A stretch of DNA of 53,499 nt from Oscillospiraceae bacterium. GTDB lineage: Bacteria > Bacillota > Clostridia > Oscillospirales > Acutalibacteraceae. The notes under the pieces were generated by a model, which was not told the origin of the DNA, ran no database searches, and saw nothing but the letters and a program-made list of their open reading frames with translations. Numbering within the stretch: the stretch's first letter is position 1; every line of letters begins with the position of its first letter. Where the stretch lies: contig CACYEQ010000041.1 in assembly GCA_902773485.1 (NCBI GenBank), positions 1-53,499 on the forward strand. The letters run 5' to 3'. The translations under genes were made by a program, and so were the position numbers. Shown here piece by piece: positions 55 through 23,907 of the stretch.

Positions 55-217
55 CCCCTTTTTTTATCTTTTTTTAAAAAAATTTTTTTATTCAATATTT
101 TGGTATATTTTTAAATTTTGCATACAATATTTAGGTGTATATACATATATATTATATAATAATTTTTAAAAAATGACACAAACTAATTTTAGATTTTTAT
201 TATAAGAGGTGAAAATA

Positions 218-400
218 ATGACAAAACCAATTGGCAGTTTTTTTAAAGGTCTCGGAACAGGCGTCGCAGTCGGCGCTGTTGCAGGAATGATTGCTTGCAG
301 TATGAGCGGCAGCAATCAAAAAAGCACAAAGAAAAAATTAAGACACGCCGTTAAAGGCGTATCGGATTTTATGGAAAATCTTTCATATATGATAAAATAA
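218..400 (+). CDS. Small hypothetical membrane protein (60 aa; Gly/Ala-rich hydrophobic segment)
   Basis: ATG at 218 sits 8 nt after AGAGG (205-209); the track ORF starts at an upstream GTG (209). One predicted TM (GLGTGVAVGAVAGMIAC), followed by a terminator. Confidence 0.55.
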   Translation: MTKPIGSFFKGLGTGVAVGAVAGMIACSMSGSNQKSTKKKLRHAVKGVSDFMENLSYMIK

Positions 401-408
401 CAAAAATT

Positions 409-436
409 GCCTCAGGTTTTAAGCCTGAGGTTTTTC
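409..436. terminator. Bidirectional intrinsic terminator (GCCTCAGG..CCTGAGG hairpin)
   Basis: Stem cctcagg(410-416)/cctgagg(424-430), T5 on the plus strand and a T-run on the minus strand. Lies between convergent genes. Confidence 0.7.
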
Positions 437-450
437 TTATATTTTATACA

Positions 451-1125
451 TTATACAGATACATCAACTCTGCCGTTTTTTACGATAATTTTTCGGTCGG
501 TTTGCTCTGCTATTTCACGGTCGTGGGTGATGATAATTACTGTTTTTCCTTTTTTGTTGAGGTCTTTTAAAATTTTCATTATTTGTTTTGTACTGTCGCT
601 GTCAAGGTTGCCGGTAGGCTCATCTGCCAAAATTATTTCAGGATTACCCACAATCGCCCTGGCAATTGCCACACGCTGTTGCTGACCGCCTGAAAGTTCA
701 TAAGGTTTATGGTTGATTCTGTTTTCAAGCCCGACTGTTTCAAGCGCTGTTTTTGCTTTTTGCCTGCGCTTTTTCTTTGGCATTTTTGCATAAAGCAGAG
801 GAAGTTCCACATTTTCAAGTGCATTCAGCGTTTGAATAAGGTTGAATTTTTGAAAAACAAACCCGATATTATCTCGTCGCAAAGCGGTAAGTTCACCTTC
901 TTTAAAATTTGCAATATTTCGGTTTTCAAAAAAATATTTTCCGCCACTCGGCTTATCAAGACAGCCTAAAATATTCATTAAAGTTGATTTTCCCGACCCC
1001 GACGAGCCGATAATGCCGACAAATTCACCCGCCCTTATATCAATACTAACTTCTCTTACGGCAACTATTCTTTCCGCTTTGGTTTTGTAAATTTTATTTA
1101 TTCTTTCTGTTTTAATTACGCTCAT
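451..1125 (-). CDS. ABC transporter ATP-binding protein, MacB/LolD-type, with no adjacent permease
   Basis: Walker A GSSGSGKST, signature LSGGQQQR, Walker B ILADEPT. ATG at 1125 lies 5 nt after AGGTGA; the track start GTG 1134 falls inside the SD. Confidence 0.9.
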   Translation of the reverse strand: MSVIKTERINKIYKTKAERIVAVREVSIDIRAGEFVGIIGSSGSGKSTLMNILGCLDKPSGGKYFFENRNIANFKEGELTALRRDNIGFVFQKFNLIQTLNALENVELPLLYAKMPKKKRRQKAKTALETVGLENRINHKPYELSGGQQQRVAIARAIVGNPEIILADEPTGNLDSDSTKQIMKILKDLNKKGKTVIIITHDREIAEQTDRKIIVKNGRVDVSV

Positions 1126-1227
1126 TTTTATCACCTAAAATATTTTTGCCGAATAAAAAACAAAAATTCTTAAATATTCAGCCAATTATTTGTAAAACTA
1201 TATTTAAAAGAAAAAGGAGAGATTTTA

Positions 1228-1665
1228 ATGACCAACAAAGAATATTCAAAAATGGTAGATAACGCAAACGAAAAATCAAATGTTTTAAAAGACTGCTTTT
1301 TTGCGTTTTTAGTGGGCGGTCTTATTTGCGTTTTGGGACAAGCACTTTGCGATTTATACAGAATGTGCGATGACAACATACTTAACGCAAGAGCACTTTC
1401 GAGCATTACGCTGGTTGCGATTTCAATTATTTTAACAGGACTTAATATTTATCCGAAAATTGCAAAGTTTGCAGGTGCAGGAACGCTCGTTCCGATAACA
1501 GGATTTGCAAACGCCTGCGCCTCGCCGGCGATTGAATTTAAACCCGAAGGGCATGTTTTAGGTATAGGTGCAAATATTTTTAAAATTTCAGGACCGGTTA
1601 TAGTTTACGGTTTGTTTGCAGGCTGGATTTACGGAATTTTTGTTTACATTATGAATTTATTTTAA
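1228..1665 (+). CDS. spoVAC: Stage V sporulation protein AC
   Basis: Family-typical motifs FLVGGLICVLGQ and AGAGTLVPITGFAN. SD AAAGGAGAG upstream. Confidence 0.9.
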   Translation: MTNKEYSKMVDNANEKSNVLKDCFFAFLVGGLICVLGQALCDLYRMCDDNILNARALSSITLVAISIILTGLNIYPKIAKFAGAGTLVPITGFANACASPAIEFKPEGHVLGIGANIFKISGPVIVYGLFAGWIYGIFVYIMNLF

Positions 1666-11481: not shown

Positions 11482-11675
11482 CTTGCGATTTGTTCTCCGT
11501 TTCGCATAATTTTGCGAATATTTTTTTCGCATGCGGAGCGGGGTATCATTATCTCGTGGTCACACCCCAAACATCTGATTTTAAAATCCATACCGATGCG
11601 TTTTACCTCAAACTCTTTTGATTTACATGGATGCGGTTTTTTCATTGTAATAATATCGCCGACCCTAATATCCAT
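11478..11675 (-). CDS. DUF951-family small protein
   Basis: MKKPHPC...RCLGC...IMIPRS pattern, typical of DUF951. Confidence 0.8.
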   Translation of the reverse strand: MDIRVGDIITMKKPHPCKSKEFEVKRIGMDFKIRCLGCDHEIMIPRSACEKNIRKIMRNGEQIAR

Positions 11676-11845
11676 ACATTTCTCCTTAAATATACTAATT
11701 TACCTTATATTATATAATATATACGCCCAATAATCAAACAATTTTTTTAAAATTACCAAAAAAATAATAATTTAGGCTTTTCAAACAATCATCAAACGAA
11801 ACAAACTTAAACTTTCGCATATTATATATTGAGGTGATTAAAATT

Positions 11846-12001
11846 ATGGAATATCTTTATAAAGATTTTGCAAATCAATGCGTTAAAACAAGAATTTCTA
11901 ATTGCTGCTGCGATAACGATTCAGACATAATCGACGATTTAGCCGAAGTTATTTGTAAAAAGTGCAAAAAGAAAAAATGTAAATGTAATAACGATGATTA
12001 A
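11846..12001 (+). CDS. Cys-rich 51-aa small ORF (MEYLYKDFANQCVKTRISNCCCDNDSDIIDDLAEVICKKCKKKKCKCNNDD)
   Basis: Strong SD GAGGTGA 7 nt upstream of ATG 11846, eight Cys including a CCC run, and its own terminator 8 nt after the stop. Below the 60-aa cutoff of the ORF track. Confidence 0.45.
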   Translation: MEYLYKDFANQCVKTRISNCCCDNDSDIIDDLAEVICKKCKKKKCKCNNDD

Positions 12002-12009
12002 AACTTCAT

Positions 12010-12034
12010 GGGCTGCCAAAAAGGCAGCCTTTTT
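12010..12034 (+). terminator. Intrinsic terminator after the Cys-rich small ORF
   Basis: ggctgcc-aaaaa-ggcagcc hairpin followed by T6. Confidence 0.75.
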
Positions 12035-12046
12035 TATAAAAAACTA

Positions 12047-12075
12047 TTGACAAATAAAAATAATAGTGTTATACT
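12047..12075 (+). promoter_or_regulatory. Sigma-A promoter of the Cys-leader/cystathionine-lyase operon
   Basis: TTGACA (12047-52), 17 nt spacer, TATACT (12070-75) with TGn extended -10 (12067-68). Confidence 0.6.
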
Positions 12076-12121
12076 ATACCTATCATATAGATAGGTTTTA
12101 TAGGAAAGGCAGGAAAATATT

Positions 12122-12211
12122 ATGAAATTTTACAATATTACCGCCGAAAAATTTAATATGTGTTGTTGTTTCGCTTGTATTTGTTCGGGCGAGGCTGATT
12201 TGTTGTGTTAA
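12122..12211 (+). CDS. Putative regulatory leader peptide, 29 aa, 6 Cys (MKFYNITAEKFNMCCCFACICSGEADLLC)
   Basis: ATG preceded by GGAAAGGCAGGAAA. Three consecutive TGT codons at 12161-12169 plus TGT at 12176, 12182 and 12206. Lies between the promoter and a terminator upstream of Cys-forming enzymes. Confidence 0.6.
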   Translation: MKFYNITAEKFNMCCCFACICSGEADLLC

Positions 12212-12239
12212 ATTTTAGCACATTAATTTATGCGTTAAT

Positions 12240-12278
12240 CGCCTGAAATTCCGATAATTCGGAATTCGGGCGTTTTTT
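12240..12278 (+). terminator. Leader (attenuator) terminator
   Basis: cgcctgaaattccg / cggaattcgggcg hairpin (12240-12272) plus T6. Its 5' arm can instead pair with 12184-12192 inside the leader ORF. Confidence 0.7.
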
Positions 12279-12306
12279 ATTTTATTATTTTAAGGAGATT
12301 TTTATT

Positions 12307-13467
12307 ATGTCAAACTACAAAAATATTGATTCAGCATTAATTCACGGGGGTATTTACGGAGATGAGTTCACAGGCTCGGTTAATGTGCCGATTTACCAAA
12401 CTTCAACCTACGAACAACCGGGGCTTGGCGAGAACAAAGGCTGGGAGTATTCGAGAACGGGCAACCCGACTCGTGCGTCACTCGAAGCACTCGTTGCAGA
12501 ACTCGAAGCCGGCACTCACGGTTTTGCTTTCGGCTCAGGGATGGCAGCCATTACCGCTGTTTTAAGCCTTTTCAAAACAGGCGATAAAATTATAATTTCA
12601 AGCAATGTTTACGGCGGAACTTTCAGAGTTTTAAACAAAGTTTTCAACCATTTTGGTATCACTTATTCAATTGAAGACACTGCTGATACCAAAACTCTTG
12701 ATACTAAAATAACCGACAATGTTAAGGCAATTTTGATTGAAAGCCCTGCAAATCCACTGCTTACAATTACCGATATCAAAGCGGTATCAACACTAGCCAA
12801 AAAGCACGGTATTTTAACGATTGTTGACAACACATTTATGACCCCTTATTTGCAACAGCCAATTAAACTCGGTGCTGATATTGTTGTACATTCCGCAACA
12901 AAATACTTAGGCGGTCACAGCGATCTAATAGCGGGACTTGCGGTTGTGAACGATGACGAATTAGCCGAACAACTCGCATTCATTCAAAATTCAACAGGAG
13001 GAGTTTTAGGACCTTTCGACTCATTTTTACTAATTCGAGGAATTAAAACGCTCGGTGTTCGTATGGACAGACACACCAAAAACGCCGAAAAAGCGGCACA
13101 GTTTTTGCTCGAAAACAAAGCGGTTAAAAAAGTTTATTACCCCGGCTTGAAAAACGCGCAAGGTTATGAAATTAACAAAAAACAGGCGAAAAACGGCGGT
13201 GCAATGATTTCATTTGAACTTTATGAAAATTACGATATTAAGACATTTTTCAAATCGCTCACGCTTGTTGCATTGGCAGAGAGTCTGGGCGGAGTTGAAT
13301 CGCTCATTTGCCACCCTGCAAGTATGACTCACGCCTCAATTCCTTATGAAACAAGGCAAAAAGTCGGCATTACAGACGGACTTATTCGTCTGTCACTTGG
13401 AATTGAAAACATAGATGATATTTTGTCTGATTTGCAGCAGGCAATTCAAAAAAGCGAGGTAAAATAA
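12307..13467 (+). CDS. Cystathionine gamma-lyase/beta-lyase family PLP enzyme (Cys/Met metabolism)
   Basis: 386 aa with PLP-lysine context HSATKYLGGHSD, typical of the MetB/MetC/MccB family. Confidence 0.9.
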   Translation: MSNYKNIDSALIHGGIYGDEFTGSVNVPIYQTSTYEQPGLGENKGWEYSRTGNPTRASLEALVAELEAGTHGFAFGSGMAAITAVLSLFKTGDKIIISSNVYGGTFRVLNKVFNHFGITYSIEDTADTKTLDTKITDNVKAILIESPANPLLTITDIKAVSTLAKKHGILTIVDNTFMTPYLQQPIKLGADIVVHSATKYLGGHSDLIAGLAVVNDDELAEQLAFIQNSTGGVLGPFDSFLLIRGIKTLGVRMDRHTKNAEKAAQFLLENKAVKKVYYPGLKNAQGYEINKKQAKNGGAMISFELYENYDIKTFFKSLTLVALAESLGGVESLICHPASMTHASIPYETRQKVGITDGLIRLSLGIENIDDILSDLQQAIQKSEVK

Positions 13468-13468
13468 T

Positions 13469-14380
13469 ATGAGTTATTACAATTCAATGCACGAACTTAT
13501 CGGCAACACGCCGATTGTTAAACTGAATAATTTAGGGTTGCCAAAAGAAGTGAATTTGTTTGCAAAACTTGAACTTTACAACCCTGCCGGAAGCGTTAAA
13601 GACAGAGTCGGTATGGCTATGATTGAAGACGCCGAGCAAAGAGGTATCTTAAAAAAAGGCGGTACGATTATTGAGGGAACCGCAGGAAATACAGGGCTTG
13701 GAATTGCTTTTGCCGCTTTGAACAAAGGCTACAAAGTTATATTTGTTGTGCCTACAAAGTTTTCAGAGGAAAAACAAACGCTTATGAGAGCGCTCGGTGC
13801 CAAGATTATCAATACTCCGCGAGAAGAGGGAATGCTCGGCGCTGCAAAAAAGGCAGAAGAACTGAAAGCACAAATTTTAAATGCGGTTTCCTTAAAACAA
13901 TTTGAAAACCCTGCTAATCCAAAAGTGCATTATAAAACGACGGGCAAAGAAATTTACGATGATTTAGAGGGAAAAATCGACTATGCTGTTTTGGGTGCAG
14001 GAAGCGGTGGAACATATTCGGGAGTGTTAAAATACTTGAAAGAAAAAAATCCAAACGTAAAAGGCATTTTGGCAGACCCTGTCGGCTCTACTATGGGCGG
14101 CGGAGAACACGGCGATTACAACATTGAAGGAATCGGCAACGATTTTATTGCAAAAACTATGGATATGTCGCTGGTTGACGAGGTTATAAAAATTGATGAT
14201 TATGATGCTGTCTCAGGTGCTCGCAAATTAGCAAAAAGTGAGGGGATTTTTGCAGGTTCATCATCAGGTGCGGCTTTGGCAGCAGCCGAAAAACTAATAA
14301 AACGTGGTGCAACAGGCAATATTGTTATTGTTTTGCCGGACAGAGGCGACCGCTATTTCAGCAAAAATCTTTACGAATAA
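13469..14380 (+). CDS. Cysteine synthase / cystathionine beta-synthase family PLP enzyme (CysK/MccA-like)
   Basis: GSVKDR PLP-lysine motif and GTAGNTG loop. 303 aa. Confidence 0.9.
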   Translation: MSYYNSMHELIGNTPIVKLNNLGLPKEVNLFAKLELYNPAGSVKDRVGMAMIEDAEQRGILKKGGTIIEGTAGNTGLGIAFAALNKGYKVIFVVPTKFSEEKQTLMRALGAKIINTPREEGMLGAAKKAEELKAQILNAVSLKQFENPANPKVHYKTTGKEIYDDLEGKIDYAVLGAGSGGTYSGVLKYLKEKNPNVKGILADPVGSTMGGGEHGDYNIEGIGNDFIAKTMDMSLVDEVIKIDDYDAVSGARKLAKSEGIFAGSSSGAALAAAEKLIKRGATGNIVIVLPDRGDRYFSKNLYE

Positions 14381-14386
14381 ACAAAT

Positions 14387-14416
14387 AAGGAACGCTTTTG
14401 CGTTCCTTATTTTTTA
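14387..14416. terminator. Bidirectional intrinsic terminator
   Basis: aaggaacgc-tttt-gcgttcctt hairpin with flanking T/A runs. Overlaps the stop codon of the convergent kinase gene. Confidence 0.7.
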
Positions 14417-15840
14417 TTAAAATCGTACCAAAATTCAACGCCGTTTTTATGGTTTGCAAATCCGCATTCATCGTGATTTATAAGCGAAATTTCTTTTACA
14501 ATAAAAAGACCTATTCCCGAATGTTTTTCCTGCTCTTTCGAGTGCTTCGATTTATAAAAATCAGTCCAAATTCGCTCGCCGTCAACCTCTGAAATACAGC
14601 TTCCCTCATTATAAACCGACAATCTGCATTTGTAATCGTCGGTTTTAAGGCTGACCTTAATCTTATGCTGATTTTTACAATACTGAATTGCATTCATTAA
14701 ATAATTATCAAAAATATGCTCTATATTTTGAGGTGATGCCTCAATTTCATAAGGCTCAATATCGGTTTCTAGTTTTATACCCTTTGCTTTAAGCAGCAAC
14801 TCACTTTTTTTACAAAGTTCGTTTATCATTTCATCAAGTCTGATTTTCTTTATTTCACTTTCAAAAATCGTTTTTTCGCCCGCCTGTATATTAAGCAGTC
14901 TGCTTATGAGTTTGCTCATTTTTTCGATTTCTTCCAAAGCCGAATTATAATAATAAAGTTTTTTCTGGCTGTCTTTGGTTAAATTCATCATTTCAATCTG
15001 ACTTGAAATAATAGCAAGCGGGGTTTTCAGTTCGTGAGTAATATTGGTAAGAACCCTTTTTCGCATATCCTCATATTCGGTCATTCGTTTGTTATCTTCT
15101 TTTAAAAGGAAATTGTAATTGTTAAGGCTGTTTACATATTCGGAAATGGTATCCGCCATAGAGTTAAAATTATTTGCCAAAACGCCTATTTCATCTTTTC
15201 CGATTTTACCGCTGTATCTTGCGGAATAATCGCCCTTTGAAATTTTTGTTGTAACTTCGCTCAGGCGTGTAACCGATTTAGTTGTGCTATGGGTAAGAGC
15301 AAACATAAGTATACCGCTTGCAATTACAAATGCGCCTAACATTATCAGCAAAAATCTGTTTGAATATGCGAAAACCGAATCGGTCGTTTTCAAACTCTGC
15401 TCAATATAAACATAATATGTTTTACCGTGATTTTTAAGTTTTGTTTTCAAAACAATGCTCTCATCACGCTTGTTTTGATTTAAAATTTCAGGTGCGGAAT
15501 TTTCTTTAAAATCATCTATATTATCGTAAAAAATCTCTTTAATAATATCGTCGGTTCTGGCGCTGCGCTTGGTTGAATAAACCGCCGATAAATTGCTGTC
15601 GCAAATAAACAAATCATAAGTCTGCTCGTAATACACTTCCAAAAAATCGTCGATTTTAGAAATATTACTGCTGAAACTAATCGAATTAAGTTGTTTTAAT
15701 GCGTGTTTCATTACATCTTTTTCATTAGAAATATAAAGCGACTTCGCGTTGCTTATATAAAGAAAAGATACTGCACCGATTGTAATAATCAAAACGGTCA
15801 TAATATAAACGGCAAGTTTAAAAGAAAGTTTTTTAAACAA
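14407..15840 (-). CDS. Sensor histidine kinase (2 TM, HAMP, HisKA, HATPase_c)
   Basis: H-box ITHELKTPLA and G-box GIGLFIVKE. N-terminal TM, periplasmic-like domain, then second TM. Confidence 0.9.
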   Translation of the reverse strand: MFKKLSFKLAVYIMTVLIITIGAVSFLYISNAKSLYISNEKDVMKHALKQLNSISFSSNISKIDDFLEVYYEQTYDLFICDSNLSAVYSTKRSARTDDIIKEIFYDNIDDFKENSAPEILNQNKRDESIVLKTKLKNHGKTYYVYIEQSLKTTDSVFAYSNRFLLIMLGAFVIASGILMFALTHSTTKSVTRLSEVTTKISKGDYSARYSGKIGKDEIGVLANNFNSMADTISEYVNSLNNYNFLLKEDNKRMTEYEDMRKRVLTNITHELKTPLAIISSQIEMMNLTKDSQKKLYYYNSALEEIEKMSKLISRLLNIQAGEKTIFESEIKKIRLDEMINELCKKSELLLKAKGIKLETDIEPYEIEASPQNIEHIFDNYLMNAIQYCKNQHKIKVSLKTDDYKCRLSVYNEGSCISEVDGERIWTDFYKSKHSKEQEKHSGIGLFIVKEISLINHDECGFANHKNGVEFWYDFNKK

Positions 15841-19793: not shown

Positions 19794-20378
19794 TTATTTT
19801 TCTTCAATTAATTTCATAATCGGTTTTACATTAATAATTGCAATACAACCTATTATTGTAATAATTGTTTCGGGCAACATATATCCGCCGTTGTATGTTA
19901 AACTGTAAACCCATGCGCCTATCCAACCTTTTGAATAGTCAGCCCAGATTGTAACGCCTGAAATAAAGTGGCACAAAAATCTCAACAAGCAACCAATAAA
20001 AGCACCGAGCCCGATTGCCACGCTTCTGTTTTCAATTTTATTTCTGAATAGTCCTGCAAGACCGATTACGCCGAAAGCGATAAAATAATCTGCAAAAATC
20101 AAAATTAAGTAAGCAACAATTCCCGAAACATAAGAAAAGTTTGAAAGGCCGTCAATTACCATATTAAGCACGCCCATAACTGCACCGCTCAAAAATCCCC
20201 AGCCTATGCCGTAACACCAGCCTATTAATGCAAGCGGAACCATACTGAAAACGGTTACAGAACCACCAAAAGGCCATTTAATTGGTGTTAAGATGTTCAA
20301 AACGAGCGAAAGAGCAATGAAAACTGCCGAAACGGTCATTCTTCTTGTTAATTGTTTTTGTGTAAGTTTTGTTGACAT
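19794..20378 (-). CDS. thiT: ECF transporter S-component, thiamine-specific (ThiT-like)
   Basis: 194-aa polytopic membrane protein directly downstream of a TPP riboswitch. Confidence 0.8.
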   Translation of the reverse strand: MSTKLTQKQLTRRMTVSAVFIALSLVLNILTPIKWPFGGSVTVFSMVPLALIGWCYGIGWGFLSGAVMGVLNMVIDGLSNFSYVSGIVAYLILIFADYFIAFGVIGLAGLFRNKIENRSVAIGLGAFIGCLLRFLCHFISGVTIWADYSKGWIGAWVYSLTYNGGYMLPETIITIIGCIAIINVKPIMKLIEEK

Positions 20379-20416: not shown

Positions 20417-20550
20417 ATGCGTTTCGACACCGAAACGCAAAAAATCCTTGATATTTAGAAATTCCTACGCCGGCATTATCCGTATCAGGTTACAGGGTTT
20501 AAAGTTGCAACAAACTTATTCTCAGCCGACTTAAAATCAGCACCCCTTTT
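20417..20550 (-). promoter_or_regulatory. TPP (THI-box) riboswitch with terminator expression platform
   Basis: Minus strand reads AGGGGTGC..GGCTGAGA..AACCCTGTAACCTGATACGGATAATGCCGGCGTAGGA. This is followed by gcgtttcg/cgaaacgc (20419-20438) and a U-run. Confidence 0.88.
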
Positions 20551-20565
20551 CATTTGTCATCTAGT

Positions 20566-22498: not shown

Positions 22499-22514
22499 AT
22501 AATAGTATAAAGAG

Positions 22515-22801
22515 AAACCGAAGAAGATGAGTAAGTAACTTTTTATTTGTTTTTCAGAGAGCCGTCGGGCGGTGTAAGACGGTAGGCGATACTAAAGCGA
22601 ATGGACATCGGAGGGTGACACGAAAGCCGAAAATTATGGGCGAGTAGCAGTCAACGGGATTTTTCTGTACCCGTTACCAATGCAGACTTGTATATTTTTG
22701 TACAAGAATTAAGCGGATACATACTTTGTATCAACTTGGGTGGTACCGCAGGAGATTTTGTTTTATTCCTGTCCCTTGAAATCAAGGGACAGGTTTTTTT
22801 T
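22515..22801 (+). promoter_or_regulatory. T-box riboswitch, Trp specifier (UGG)
   Basis: GA/K-turn GAAGATGAGTA and AGAGAG bulge with distal GGTGTAAG. Specifier context GAA-TGG-A (TGG 22592-94) and F-box CCGTTA. T-box AACTTGGGTGGTACCGCA (22733-50) and terminator cctgtcccttga/tcaagggacagg (22768-92) plus T9. Confidence 0.9.
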
Positions 22802-22914: not shown

Positions 22915-23907
22915 ATGAAAAAAATATTAGCATTACTTTTAACTTTATCATTGGCAATTTGCTTCGCCTCTTGCGGCAGCGATGAAGCAAAAAAAGGAAC
23001 AAAAACAGACAAAACTTACAAAATAGGCATAATTCAGTATATGAGCCACCCTTCGCTTGACAACTGCTACAACGGCATTATCAAAGGGCTTGACGAAGCA
23101 GGCGTTAAATATGAGGCTGACTATCAAACAGGCTCAGCAAACTCTGCTGACGCTGACTGCACAAACTTTGCAAAGAAAATGGTAAGCGACGGCGTTGATA
23201 TGATTTTTGCAATAGCAACACCTGCCGCACAAAGCGCTTACAATGCAACCGCCGATACTGATATTCCTGTTATTTTCTGTGCTGTATCCGACCCTGAGGG
23301 TGCAAAACTCGTTAAATCTAACGATAAACCCGGTTCACTTTGCACAGGTACATCTGATGTTCTTGACCTTGCGGCTCAAGTTGATATGATTCAGGCTATG
23401 CAGAAAGATGTTAAAAAAATCGGTATTCTTTACACCGCTTCTGAGGCAAACTCGGTAACTAACCTTAAAAATTTCCAAAAAGTTTGCGATGAAAGAAAAC
23501 TCGAAGTTGTTTCAAAAGCAGTAAACAACGCTGCTGATATTCCATCTGCCGCAGAAGATTTGGCAGCTCAGGTTGACTGCATTAACAACTTTACAGATAA
23601 CAATGTTGTAAACAATTTAAAAGTTGTATTAAAAGCCGCCGAGAACCACAAAATTCCTGTTTACGGTTCGGAAGAAGAGCAGGTTAAAAACGGTTGCTTG
23701 GCGTCAGTTTCAATCGACTATGTTGCACTGGGCAAAGTAACAGGTAAAATGGGAGCCGATGTCTTAGGCGGTAAAGACGCTGCAACAATGGCGGTAAAAA
23801 CAATTACCGACGCTACACCTATTGTAAATACAGATGTGTTAAAAACTCTTAATATGACAATGCCTGAAAGTTATTCGAACGCACAAACTGTAACTACTAA
23901 CAAATAA
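22915..23907 (+). CDS. ABC transporter substrate-binding lipoprotein (TrpX-like, ABC_sub_bind family)
   Basis: Signal peptide with lipobox FASC. Lies downstream of the Trp T-box, in the family seen in TrpXYZ-type aromatic amino-acid importers. Confidence 0.8.
   Translation: MKKILALLLTLSLAICFASCGSDEAKKGTKTDKTYKIGIIQYMSHPSLDNCYNGIIKGLDEAGVKYEADYQTGSANSADADCTNFAKKMVSDGVDMIFAIATPAAQSAYNATADTDIPVIFCAVSDPEGAKLVKSNDKPGSLCTGTSDVLDLAAQVDMIQAMQKDVKKIGILYTASEANSVTNLKNFQKVCDERKLEVVSKAVNNAADIPSAAEDLAAQVDCINNFTDNNVVNNLKVVLKAAENHKIPVYGSEEEQVKNGCLASVSIDYVALGKVTGKMGADVLGGKDAATMAVKTITDATPIVNTDVLKTLNMTMPESYSNAQTVTTNK

Follow-up and report, generated by a model that had tools for sequence, protein, structure and literature searches.

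A probable cysteine-responsive attenuator: a poly-Cys leader ORF with mutually exclusive terminator and anti-terminator helices ahead of an mccB/mccA-like operon in an Oscillospiraceae bacterium

Organization of the locus

We analysed a stretch of 53,499 nucleotides (nt) from an Oscillospiraceae bacterium (GenBank contig CACYEQ010000041.1, referred to as the window), in which an operon of two genes, encoding an MccB-like lyase and an MccA/CysK-like enzyme, is preceded by a leader with a short Cys-rich open reading frame (ORF). This leader had been read, from its letters alone, as a candidate ribosome-mediated Cys attenuator (the original prediction), an interpretation that is supported by the sequence comparisons and folding models described below. 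The coordinates of all features are given in Table 1. The promoter scores 11/12 with the extended TG in addition, and is the top promoter-like site within positions 11500-14600. The leader ORF has a Shine-Dalgarno (SD) sequence and a 5′ untranslated region (UTR) of ~40 nt ahead of it, and thus it is not leaderless. The T-tract of the terminator ends 29 nt 5′ of the lyase ATG. The octamer TTCGGGCG is present at 12184-12191 and again at 12265-12272, and its complement CGCCTGAA lies at 12240-12247. The original prediction had claimed the promoter (TTGACA, 17 nt, TGnTATACT), the 29-codon ORF with 6 Cys codons and its TGT triplet, the terminator at its distance from the lyase start, and the repeated octamer with both copies complementary to CGCCTGAA, and each of these was recovered exactly.

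At or overlapping the predicted transcription start there is a perfect inverted repeat, which could be a hairpin stabilising the 5′ end or the operator of a protein (repressor), the latter adding a second layer of control. With regard to the downstream genes, the lyase scores just under the curated cut-off of its family model, and the assignment of the second enzyme is to the cysteine synthase / O-acetylserine-dependent cystathionine beta-synthase family. Other neighbours of the leader are a GNAT acetyltransferase and a two-component system.

Table 1. Positions of the leader elements, pairing segments and operon genes in the window (SD, Shine-Dalgarno; PLP, pyridoxal phosphate).
Feature	Position	Strand	Details
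Sigma-A-type promoter	12047-12075	+	TTGACA 12047-12052, 17-nt spacer, TG 12067-12068, TATACT 12070-12075 (TGtTATACT, extended -10)
Inverted repeat	12079-12095	+	CCTATC-ATATA-GATAGG, perfect 6-5-6
SD region of leader ORF	12106-12114	+	AAAGGCAGGA; AGGA 7 nt 5′ of ATG
Leader ORF	12122-12211	+	29 codons, MKFYNITAEKFNMCCCFACICSGEADLLC; 6 Cys; stop codon at 12209
Putative regulatory codons	12161-12169	+	TGT TGT TGT, Cys 14-16, consecutive run inside the leader ORF
Segment 1	12168-12177	+	5′ arm of the 1:2 (anti-anti-terminator) hairpin; overlaps third Cys codon of the run, through codon 19
Segment 2	12184-12195	+	12186-12195 pairs with segment 1; 12184-12192 (TTCGGGCGA) pairs with segment 3 as anti-terminator
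Segment 3	12239-12254	+	Terminator 5′ arm, TCGCCTGAA + ATTCCGA; common to the anti-terminator
Segment 4	12259-12278	+	Terminator 3′ arm, TCGGAATTCGGGCG + T6
Terminator (3:4 hairpin)	12240-12272	+	14-bp GC-rich hairpin, -20.2 kcal/mol, then T6 12273-12278
SD of lyase	12292-12297	+	AAGGAG; 14 nt past T-tract, outside the terminator hairpin
MccB-like cystathionine gamma-lyase/homocysteine desulfhydrase	12307-13467	+	NF005810 567.5 bits (curated cut-off 594); Pfam PF01053, PLP Cys/Met metabolism
MccA/CysK-like PLP enzyme	13469-14380	+	TIGR01136 342 bits (cut-off 344); PF00291 in relatives
Operon-end terminator	14383-14412	+ (reported on both strands)	Begins 2 nt past the stop codon

Alternative folding of the leader

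The copy of TTCGGGCG at 12184-12191 is held by 12168-12177, so that the leader completes the four-segment layout of an attenuator. The 1:2 hairpin (12168-12177:12186-12195) has 10 base pairs and a core energy of -11.9 kcal/mol (-19.7 kcal/mol for the extended form, 12149-12216), and the anti-terminator 2:3 (12184-12192:12239-12247) has 9 base pairs and a duplex energy of -13.3 kcal/mol and is mutually exclusive with the terminator. The minimum free energy (MFE) structure of the ribosome-free leader consists of the 1:2 hairpin and the terminator, and its z value against dinucleotide shuffles is -4.87, none of the 200 shuffles being as good.

For following the switch, nascent transcripts were folded with 3′ ends from 12247 to 12277, all the folds of the leader thus ending 5′ of the lyase SD, and the ribosome footprint, assumed to span the positions -15 to +12 or +14 relative to the A-site codon, was forced to be single-stranded. 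Transcripts free of ribosomes, or with one placed on the stop codon, form the predicted 1:2 hairpin (10 or 8 base pairs) and never the anti-terminator, and their terminator grows once segment 4 emerges. With Cys 14, 15 or 16 in the A site, the 1:2 hairpin is lost and the 9-bp anti-terminator is the MFE structure for 3′ ends from 12247 to ~12269-12271. With all of segment 4 available the terminator fold is better by ~2 kcal/mol in these same folds; as the terminator overtakes only when segment 4 is complete, the switch would be kinetic, as in classical systems. Footprints on C19, C21, C29 or the stop codon gave no switch to the anti-terminator, and a ribosome stalled at C19 or C21 would sit on segment 2 and would not anti-terminate. 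The suggestion that a ribosome stalled on the Cys triplet frees 12184-12192 for the terminator arm is therefore borne out in the folding, where the anti-terminator does compete energetically once the footprint is in place. Two parts of the original prediction needed amendment. The Cys codons 14-16 are indeed positioned to anti-terminate, but only these three of the Cys codons, C19 and C21 having no such role; and the terminator does form with the ribosome at the stop codon, as expected for the Cys-replete state, but this depends on the 1:2 hairpin, which had not been described.

It may be noted that the 1:2 hairpin followed by TGATTTGTTG (12168-12205) was flagged as terminator-like by a consensus scan. 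The hairpin with this U-rich tail is probably a pause site for RNA polymerase, and as such a candidate, from the models, for synchronising transcription with translation of the leader.

Conservation in close relatives

Close relatives were reached by a large protein search, with lyases 90-92% identical to that of the window, and by subsequent look-ups of contigs encoding the exact proteins. These contigs have the identical two-gene operon with its leader, in five further distinct versions which together with the window leader make six variants (alignment A2, 88% mean identity). All six variants agree in the promoter hexamers with the TG, the ATG, the CCC codons, ATGTGTTGTTGTTTCGCTT, CGCCTGAA, the lyase SD and the 3′ arm of the terminator including its T-tract; the SD region of the leader ORF (GGAAAGG..AGGAAAA) is largely kept. 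The frame is maintained across a 3-nt in-frame indel, and the position of the stop codon shifts among the relatives, whose peptides read MNFKNITAEKFYMCCCFACRFSGGANLLCKS, MKNNKFTTVKLNMCCCFACVSGGTDLLCKK and MKFNKFATVKLNMCCCFAYLSGGTDLLCKK. Segment 2, TTCGGGCGA in the window, becomes TTCAGGCGG or GTCAGGCGG with its pairing to segment 3 kept, and GAGGC becomes GGGGC or GGAAC. Each of the segment 2 changes preserves both the 1:2 and the 2:3 pairing (G-U to A-U, U-G to U-A). All three helices, 1:2, 2:3 and 3:4, are thus maintained, and the inner terminator stem varies by lineage and stays paired. Masked folding reproduced the footprint switch in three relatives. Conservation of the Cys-rich ORF along with the alternative pairing, on which the original prediction had made itself dependent, is therefore found in all five additional variants. 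The inverted repeat at 12079-12095 is also present in all close relatives with one-base changes, giving a U-G pair in one lineage and a C-A mismatch in another. In one further relative (L168, lyase 85% identical) the expected position of the leader is occupied by an IS110-family transposase gene (74-1285, reverse strand), and this locus is uninformative for the leader.

The pattern of peptide conservation bears on the possibility that the ORF encodes a functional Cys-rich peptide, such as a precursor of a modified peptide or a metal- or redox-binding one, with a leaky terminator of its own. Six Cys in 29 residues would be in line with such a product, as would the adjoining Cys-rich ORF described below. 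Yet only M-CCC-FA, SG and LLC persist among the variants, codons 2-12 and the tail vary freely, C19 and C21 are lost, and the codons of the conserved SG coincide with the anti-terminator strand of the RNA. The annotated neighbours, namely the PLP enzymes, the acetyltransferase and the two-component system, include no maturase, radical-SAM enzyme or transporter near the leader ORF, and unrelated poly-Cys peptides take the same position before the operon elsewhere (see below). We therefore give a functional peptide only a very slight probability.

The adjoining ORF (11846-12001, forward strand), MEYLYKDFANQCVKTRISNCCCDNDSDIIDDLAEVICKKCKKKKCKCNNDD, has a strong SD (GAGGTGA) and contains CCC, and is followed 9 nt past its stop codon (12001) by a terminator at 12010-12030 with a T-run. 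In its homologue at locus L173 (MDYCYSDFANQSVKTRISNCCCDETQNQ...) the Cys and other codons show synonymous changes, 23 N-terminal residues are kept and the tail is divergent; from this comparison the ORF appears to be under selection at the protein level. The other close relatives do not have it, and a protein search returned only the ORF itself. We considered it as a tandem attenuator and rejected this, since no alternative pairing of its terminator was found at any ribosome position and the best duplex was only -7.6 kcal/mol. An analogous pair of ORFs is seen at locus L139, where a CCC...CCC ORF is followed by MIYKFFENLKCCCCKFLSKRTYL and then by the lyase.

Poly-Cys leaders at distant loci

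Scans of genomes and metagenomes yielded 160 lyase loci, with lyase homologues at most 83% identical to that of the window, and even the closest species in these collections have a different operon layout. BLASTN of the window leader against the 160 loci gave no true similarity. Many of these loci, in Ruminococcus, other Oscillospiraceae, Fibrobacter and Lachnospiraceae, nevertheless have a poly-Cys short ORF on the operon strand. It stands just ahead of the gene with which the operon begins, and in most cases a hairpin and a U-run come after it, an arrangement that the original prediction had proposed to look for upstream of lyase/CysK-like operons. These ORFs fall into several families unrelated in sequence. 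Examples are MRNNMMCCCMCNMNRKRILRTYAQRCCGSF in the Ruminococcus flavefaciens group, MNFPFNSLNFACCCRCRTGI in Fibrobacter, MKGSVQTFRRNCCCCCE in Lachnospiraceae, and MFSIISLTVCCCCCSENNC... and MKKEVIEM...SCCMCCCNDTDGF at further distant loci. The operon order at the distant loci is an LCM-type S-adenosylmethionine (SAM)-dependent methyltransferase (-MetK), LuxS, the lyase (MccB) and the MccA-like enzyme.

Counting (TGY)3 by strand (105 vs 59) discriminated poorly, because the pattern also falls inside genes in other frames, and this count was replaced by a pipeline of ORF plus terminator. With this one fixed pipeline a terminator follows the Cys-run short ORF in 50 of 116 cases on the operon strand vs 10 of 90 on the opposite strand. 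The anti-terminator duplexes are stronger than those of shuffles (mean z = -1.43; p <= 0.05 for 37.5% of 48 leaders), and in most families the anti-terminator strand typically begins 14-45 nt past the first Cys codon. In the R. flavefaciens-type alignment (A1, 17 members) the terminator has compensatory changes in 5 pairs, and the anti-terminator columns (83-93 with 174-184) are 82% paired, two of the pairs having GC/AU and CG/UA exchanges; the score of this anti-terminator was reached by 2 of 500 column shuffles, and all slid registers scored lower. When 45 leaders were folded with masking, 84% of them had at least 5 anti-terminator pairs if the footprint was on Cys, 76% without a ribosome and 47% with the footprint at the stop codon. 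These values are noisy and we do not rely on them; the boundaries chosen also caused the window leader to be mis-scored, and the dedicated scan of nascent ends described above was used for it instead.

These comparisons are to be set against the possibility that ORF, repeated octamer and terminator lie together by chance. Intergenic DNA rich in AT commonly has short ORFs as well as hairpins resembling terminators, and Cys-run short ORFs, if loosely defined, are frequent on both strands. In the 53.5-kb window TTCGGGCG occurs 8 times on the two strands vs 1.3 expected from shuffles, and the probability of a second copy on the same strand within ~120 nt is roughly 0.003-0.02. Of the only 3 occurrences of TGYTGYTGY there, two are found just ahead of the operon, both on the same strand and no more than 260 nt apart, and only two short ORFs contain CCC, namely the leader ORF and that at 11846-12001. 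For the terminator 5′ arm and the stretch that follows the Cys run, the best duplex is stronger than in 96% of shuffles (p = 0.037). With these octamer and TGY-run statistics, the conservation of the leader in relatives, the strand asymmetry of ORF plus terminator and the covariation in the sister family, chance is effectively refuted by the comparative data.

The T-box model gave matches at the leader position of four Clostridium loci, L062, L073, L076 and L078 (C. ljungdahlii, C. tepidum and two Clostridium sp.), and by a motif search 6 of the 160 loci would have a T-box. At the apparent specifier position of the Clostridium loci (GAAUGCA) UGC was read by eye, which matches the Cys T-box of the C. 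acetobutylicum ubiG-mccBA operon (PMC2566862). With T-boxes in Clostridium and poly-Cys leaders elsewhere, the same operon is thus fronted by different sensors depending on the lineage.

Several individual loci may be mentioned here. At L002 (329-2452) the poly-Cys leader is followed by a methyltransferase apparently fused to a complete SAM synthetase (MetK) in a single ORF of 707 amino acids with Pfam support, and L003 (353-2455) has a similar methyltransferase-MetK ORF of 700 amino acids; both are Ruminococcus-like. Such a fusion would unite the synthesis and the consumption of SAM in one polypeptide of the methionine-to-cysteine route. Poly-Cys leaders with a terminator were also seen in genomes labelled as other phyla (L019, L020, L022, L057, L088, L091, L093, L095 and L107, Fibrobacter-labelled or similar; L007, Spirochaetes; L036, Succinatimonas), where the lyases are ~73-79% identical to that of the window. 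This suggests either that operon and leader were horizontally transferred together among rumen bacteria or that the metagenome binning is in error. Poly-Cys short ORFs lie 5′ of a Na:alanine-family symporter gene (L038, 1403-1525), of an ORF whose N-terminus is CysK-like by eye (L112, 307-369), and of genes other than the methyltransferase or lyase (L117, 32-106; L041, 2813-2965), and their positions hint at a wider cysteine regulon under the control of such leaders. At L139 (2270-2310) the promoter-like TTGACA ... TATAAT runs straight into the ATG of the poly-Cys ORF, and the mRNA from which this ORF is translated may be leaderless or nearly so.

Comparison with known regulatory systems

Rfam scans of 11650-12400 at the gathering scores and at E <= 10 gave no family for the leader and no T-box match, and among the riboswitches, SAM/S-box included, the best matches to the leader reached 15-23 bits vs thresholds of 37-94. 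The T-box model is sensitive enough to detect a T-box elsewhere in the window and in the orthologous loci of Clostridium. This confirms the original prediction in its statement that both T-box and S-box are missing from the leader. The weak matches (Clostridium-PBP, Pseudomon-1, Phe_leader and others, at the same 15-23 bits) were rejected as reflecting only the promoter/SD or the terminator; the only leader family among them, Phe_leader, matched the upstream ORF region with 15.9 bits vs a threshold of 55.

The window itself has a T-box leader at 22512-22779 (forward strand, 99.5 bits), which precedes an operon for an ABC transporter (PF04392 substrate-binding protein at 22915-23907, permease, ATPase), and a thiamine pyrophosphate riboswitch at 20445-20557 (reverse strand, 70.2 bits) upstream of a gene for a ThiT/YuaJ-type thiamine transporter (19794-20378, reverse strand).

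The Rfam result is relevant to a switch between terminator and anti-terminator that is driven by some other factor, such as an RNA-binding protein, a small RNA or an unrecognised ligand fold, with the short ORF being incidental or modulatory. The strong structure of the leader (by the above z value) and the conserved palindrome at 12079-12095, which has no place in a ribosome model, speak for this, as does the usual regulation of Firmicutes through T-boxes, riboswitches or proteins along with the uncoupled state of B. subtilis (PMC7858274). But within the leader Rfam gives only noise far below the gathering scores, and what the unrelated leader families share is the poly-Cys ORF with a terminator and not any RNA motif. 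The retention of the ATG, the frame and CCC across the in-frame indel, and the spacing of 14-45 nt from the Cys run to the anti-terminator strand, which is that of a stalled ribosome, are also contrary to an incidental ORF. Such a switch is in our view improbable.

On comparison with the enterobacterial trp/his/leu/thr/pheA attenuators, the leader has the same SD-led ORF, run of codons for the end product, exclusive 1:2/2:3/3:4 helices and terminator before the first structural gene, and it agrees with every structural criterion of the classical attenuator class that was tested. The helix energies are also similar in size to those of the trp leader. Unlike the enterobacterial attenuators, it reads cysteine, belongs to a low-GC clostridial host and has no sequence similarity to them, and its stop codon lies after segment 2 instead of between segments 1 and 2. 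Leader-peptide attenuation is textbook knowledge in Proteobacteria, but in Firmicutes it is taken to be rare, T-boxes and riboswitches being the prevalent devices there.

A poly-Cys ORF before cysteine genes, with stalling as the signal and control operon by operon, is shared with the mycobacterial 'Cys ribulon' (bioRxiv 10.1101/834739) and the predicted cysteine leader peptides of Actinobacteria, which have no terminators (PMC1262725). The mycobacterial polycysteine short ORFs, which were shown to act on translation (bioRxiv 10.1101/834739), are leaderless, lack an intrinsic terminator and unmask a ribosome-binding site, whereas the window leader has an SD and a terminator/anti-terminator. 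An attenuator that responds to Cys through translation or Rho, as in these systems, would have on its side that the only poly-Cys short ORFs studied by experiment unmask the downstream ribosome-binding site and that the actinobacterial leaders do without terminators. Here, however, a canonical 14-bp GC-rich hairpin with T6 is conserved within the 5′ UTR, the lyase SD lies outside it, beyond the T-tract, and the leader ORF is SD-led and not leaderless. We regard this mode of action as highly improbable.

Another similar element is uORFC-8-2, which precedes cysS in Rhodobacterales (PMC8632094). Its tandem Cys codons mostly occupy positions 14-15 (14-16 in the window) and lie in the first stem, and its terminator has a U run. 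It is, however, an alphaproteobacterial element, known by prediction only, which controls Cys-tRNA synthetase and not Cys synthesis and is unrelated in sequence to the window leader. The Rfam scan of the leader gave nothing resembling it, its presence in Rfam not having been checked.

The same pathway, on the other hand, is controlled in C. acetobutylicum by a Cys T-box, which was demonstrated experimentally for the ubiG-mccBA operon of the methionine-to-cysteine route (PMC2566862). The Cys T-box of ubiG-mccB-mccA in C. acetobutylicum and C. perfringens (PMC2566862, PMC2940859) resembles the window leader in pathway, position, the charging of tRNA-Cys as signal and read-through of a terminator. 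It differs in reading the tRNA by RNA-RNA contact, which in the window leader would be done by the ribosome. According to a survey of premature terminators, leader peptides outside Proteobacteria and Actinobacteria were known only as the His leader in bacilli/Firmicutes (PMC2965389). Our literature search, in whose coverage subscription journals were largely not included, found no Cys leader-peptide attenuator for Clostridia, Ruminococcus or Fibrobacter or before mccB/mccA.

Discussion

We consider it very probable that the leader is a Cys-responsive, ribosome-mediated transcription attenuator of the trp/his/leu type, as judged from sequence and folding models. At that level we could establish the parts, their mutual exclusivity, the geometry of the stall, their conservation while the peptide drifts, and the recurrence of such leaders ahead of the same pathway.

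Transcription would start ~7 nt past the -10 box and the leader ORF would be translated while it emerges. According to the folding models and the conservation, if there is no ribosome, or if the ribosome reads through to the stop codon, segment 1 would hold segment 2, the terminator 3:4 would form, and RNA polymerase would stop at T6 before the lyase gene. If Cys-tRNA(Cys) is scarce, the first ribosome would stall with codon 14, 15 or 16 in the A site, and its footprint, reaching to ~12179-12181, would cover segment 1 and leave segment 2 (from 12184) free to pair with segment 3 as soon as this emerges, such that the terminator cannot nucleate. Read-through into the mccB-like and mccA-like genes would then supply cysteine from homocysteine or cystathionine. 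The decision would be a kinetic one, the terminator at full length being ahead by only the ~2 kcal/mol given above, and the polymerase would probably be paused at the 1:2 hairpin and its U-rich stretch until the ribosome catches up. In all, we infer that the ORF is translated, that the ribosome stalls on scarce Cys-tRNA with the polymerase waiting, and that read-through rises when cysteine is short.

Several of our results weigh against this attenuator model. At the equilibrium of the full-length leader the terminator is always the MFE structure, and hence the model rests on kinetics. With the stop codon 17 nt downstream of segment 2, a ribosome at the stop does not cover this segment, and for the off state the 1:2 hairpin has to form again. 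The changes in 1:2 and 2:3 are one-sided, with no double compensatory change at the available divergence, and covariation for the window-type leader itself is therefore weak, that which we found coming from a different leader family. The shuffle result for the duplex of the single leader (p = 0.037) is modest, and the inverted repeat at 12079-12095 has no role in the model. Lastly, in B. subtilis transcription runs ahead of the ribosomes, a behaviour for which terminators placed closely behind stop codons have served as a proxy (PMC7858274), and the window too has such short distances, 2 nt (14380/14383) and 9 nt (12001/12010). If the host shares uncoupled transcription, a ribosome-dependent attenuator would need a strong pause of the polymerase.

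As for the wider picture, the chances seem to us evenly balanced that poly-Cys terminator/anti-terminator leaders form a widespread undescribed class in rumen and gut anaerobes (Ruminococcus, other Oscillospiraceae, Lachnospiraceae, Fibrobacter and possibly Treponema), which arose or diversified repeatedly, replaces the Clostridium Cys T-box before methyltransferase-LuxS-MccB-MccA and also fronts other genes (Na:alanine-family symporter, CysK-like). If such a class exists, there would be a 'Cys ribulon' outside Actinobacteria, and the ORF at 11846-12001 could be a second cysteine-dependent element. Dozens of analogous leaders were recovered here; as the mechanism itself is a known one, the advance is one of distribution and specificity and not of principle. 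The operon offers a natural case of the replacement of one sensor by another, the T-box vs the ribosome, and with the poly-Cys leader as a simple marker, cysteine regulons can be annotated in rumen and gut bacteria that have not been cultured. Should the switches function in the way proposed here, they would imply a functional synchronisation of ribosome and polymerase in a low-GC Firmicute lineage where uncoupling is expected, and the leader offers a direct test of whether ribosomes keep pace with RNA polymerase in these Firmicutes.

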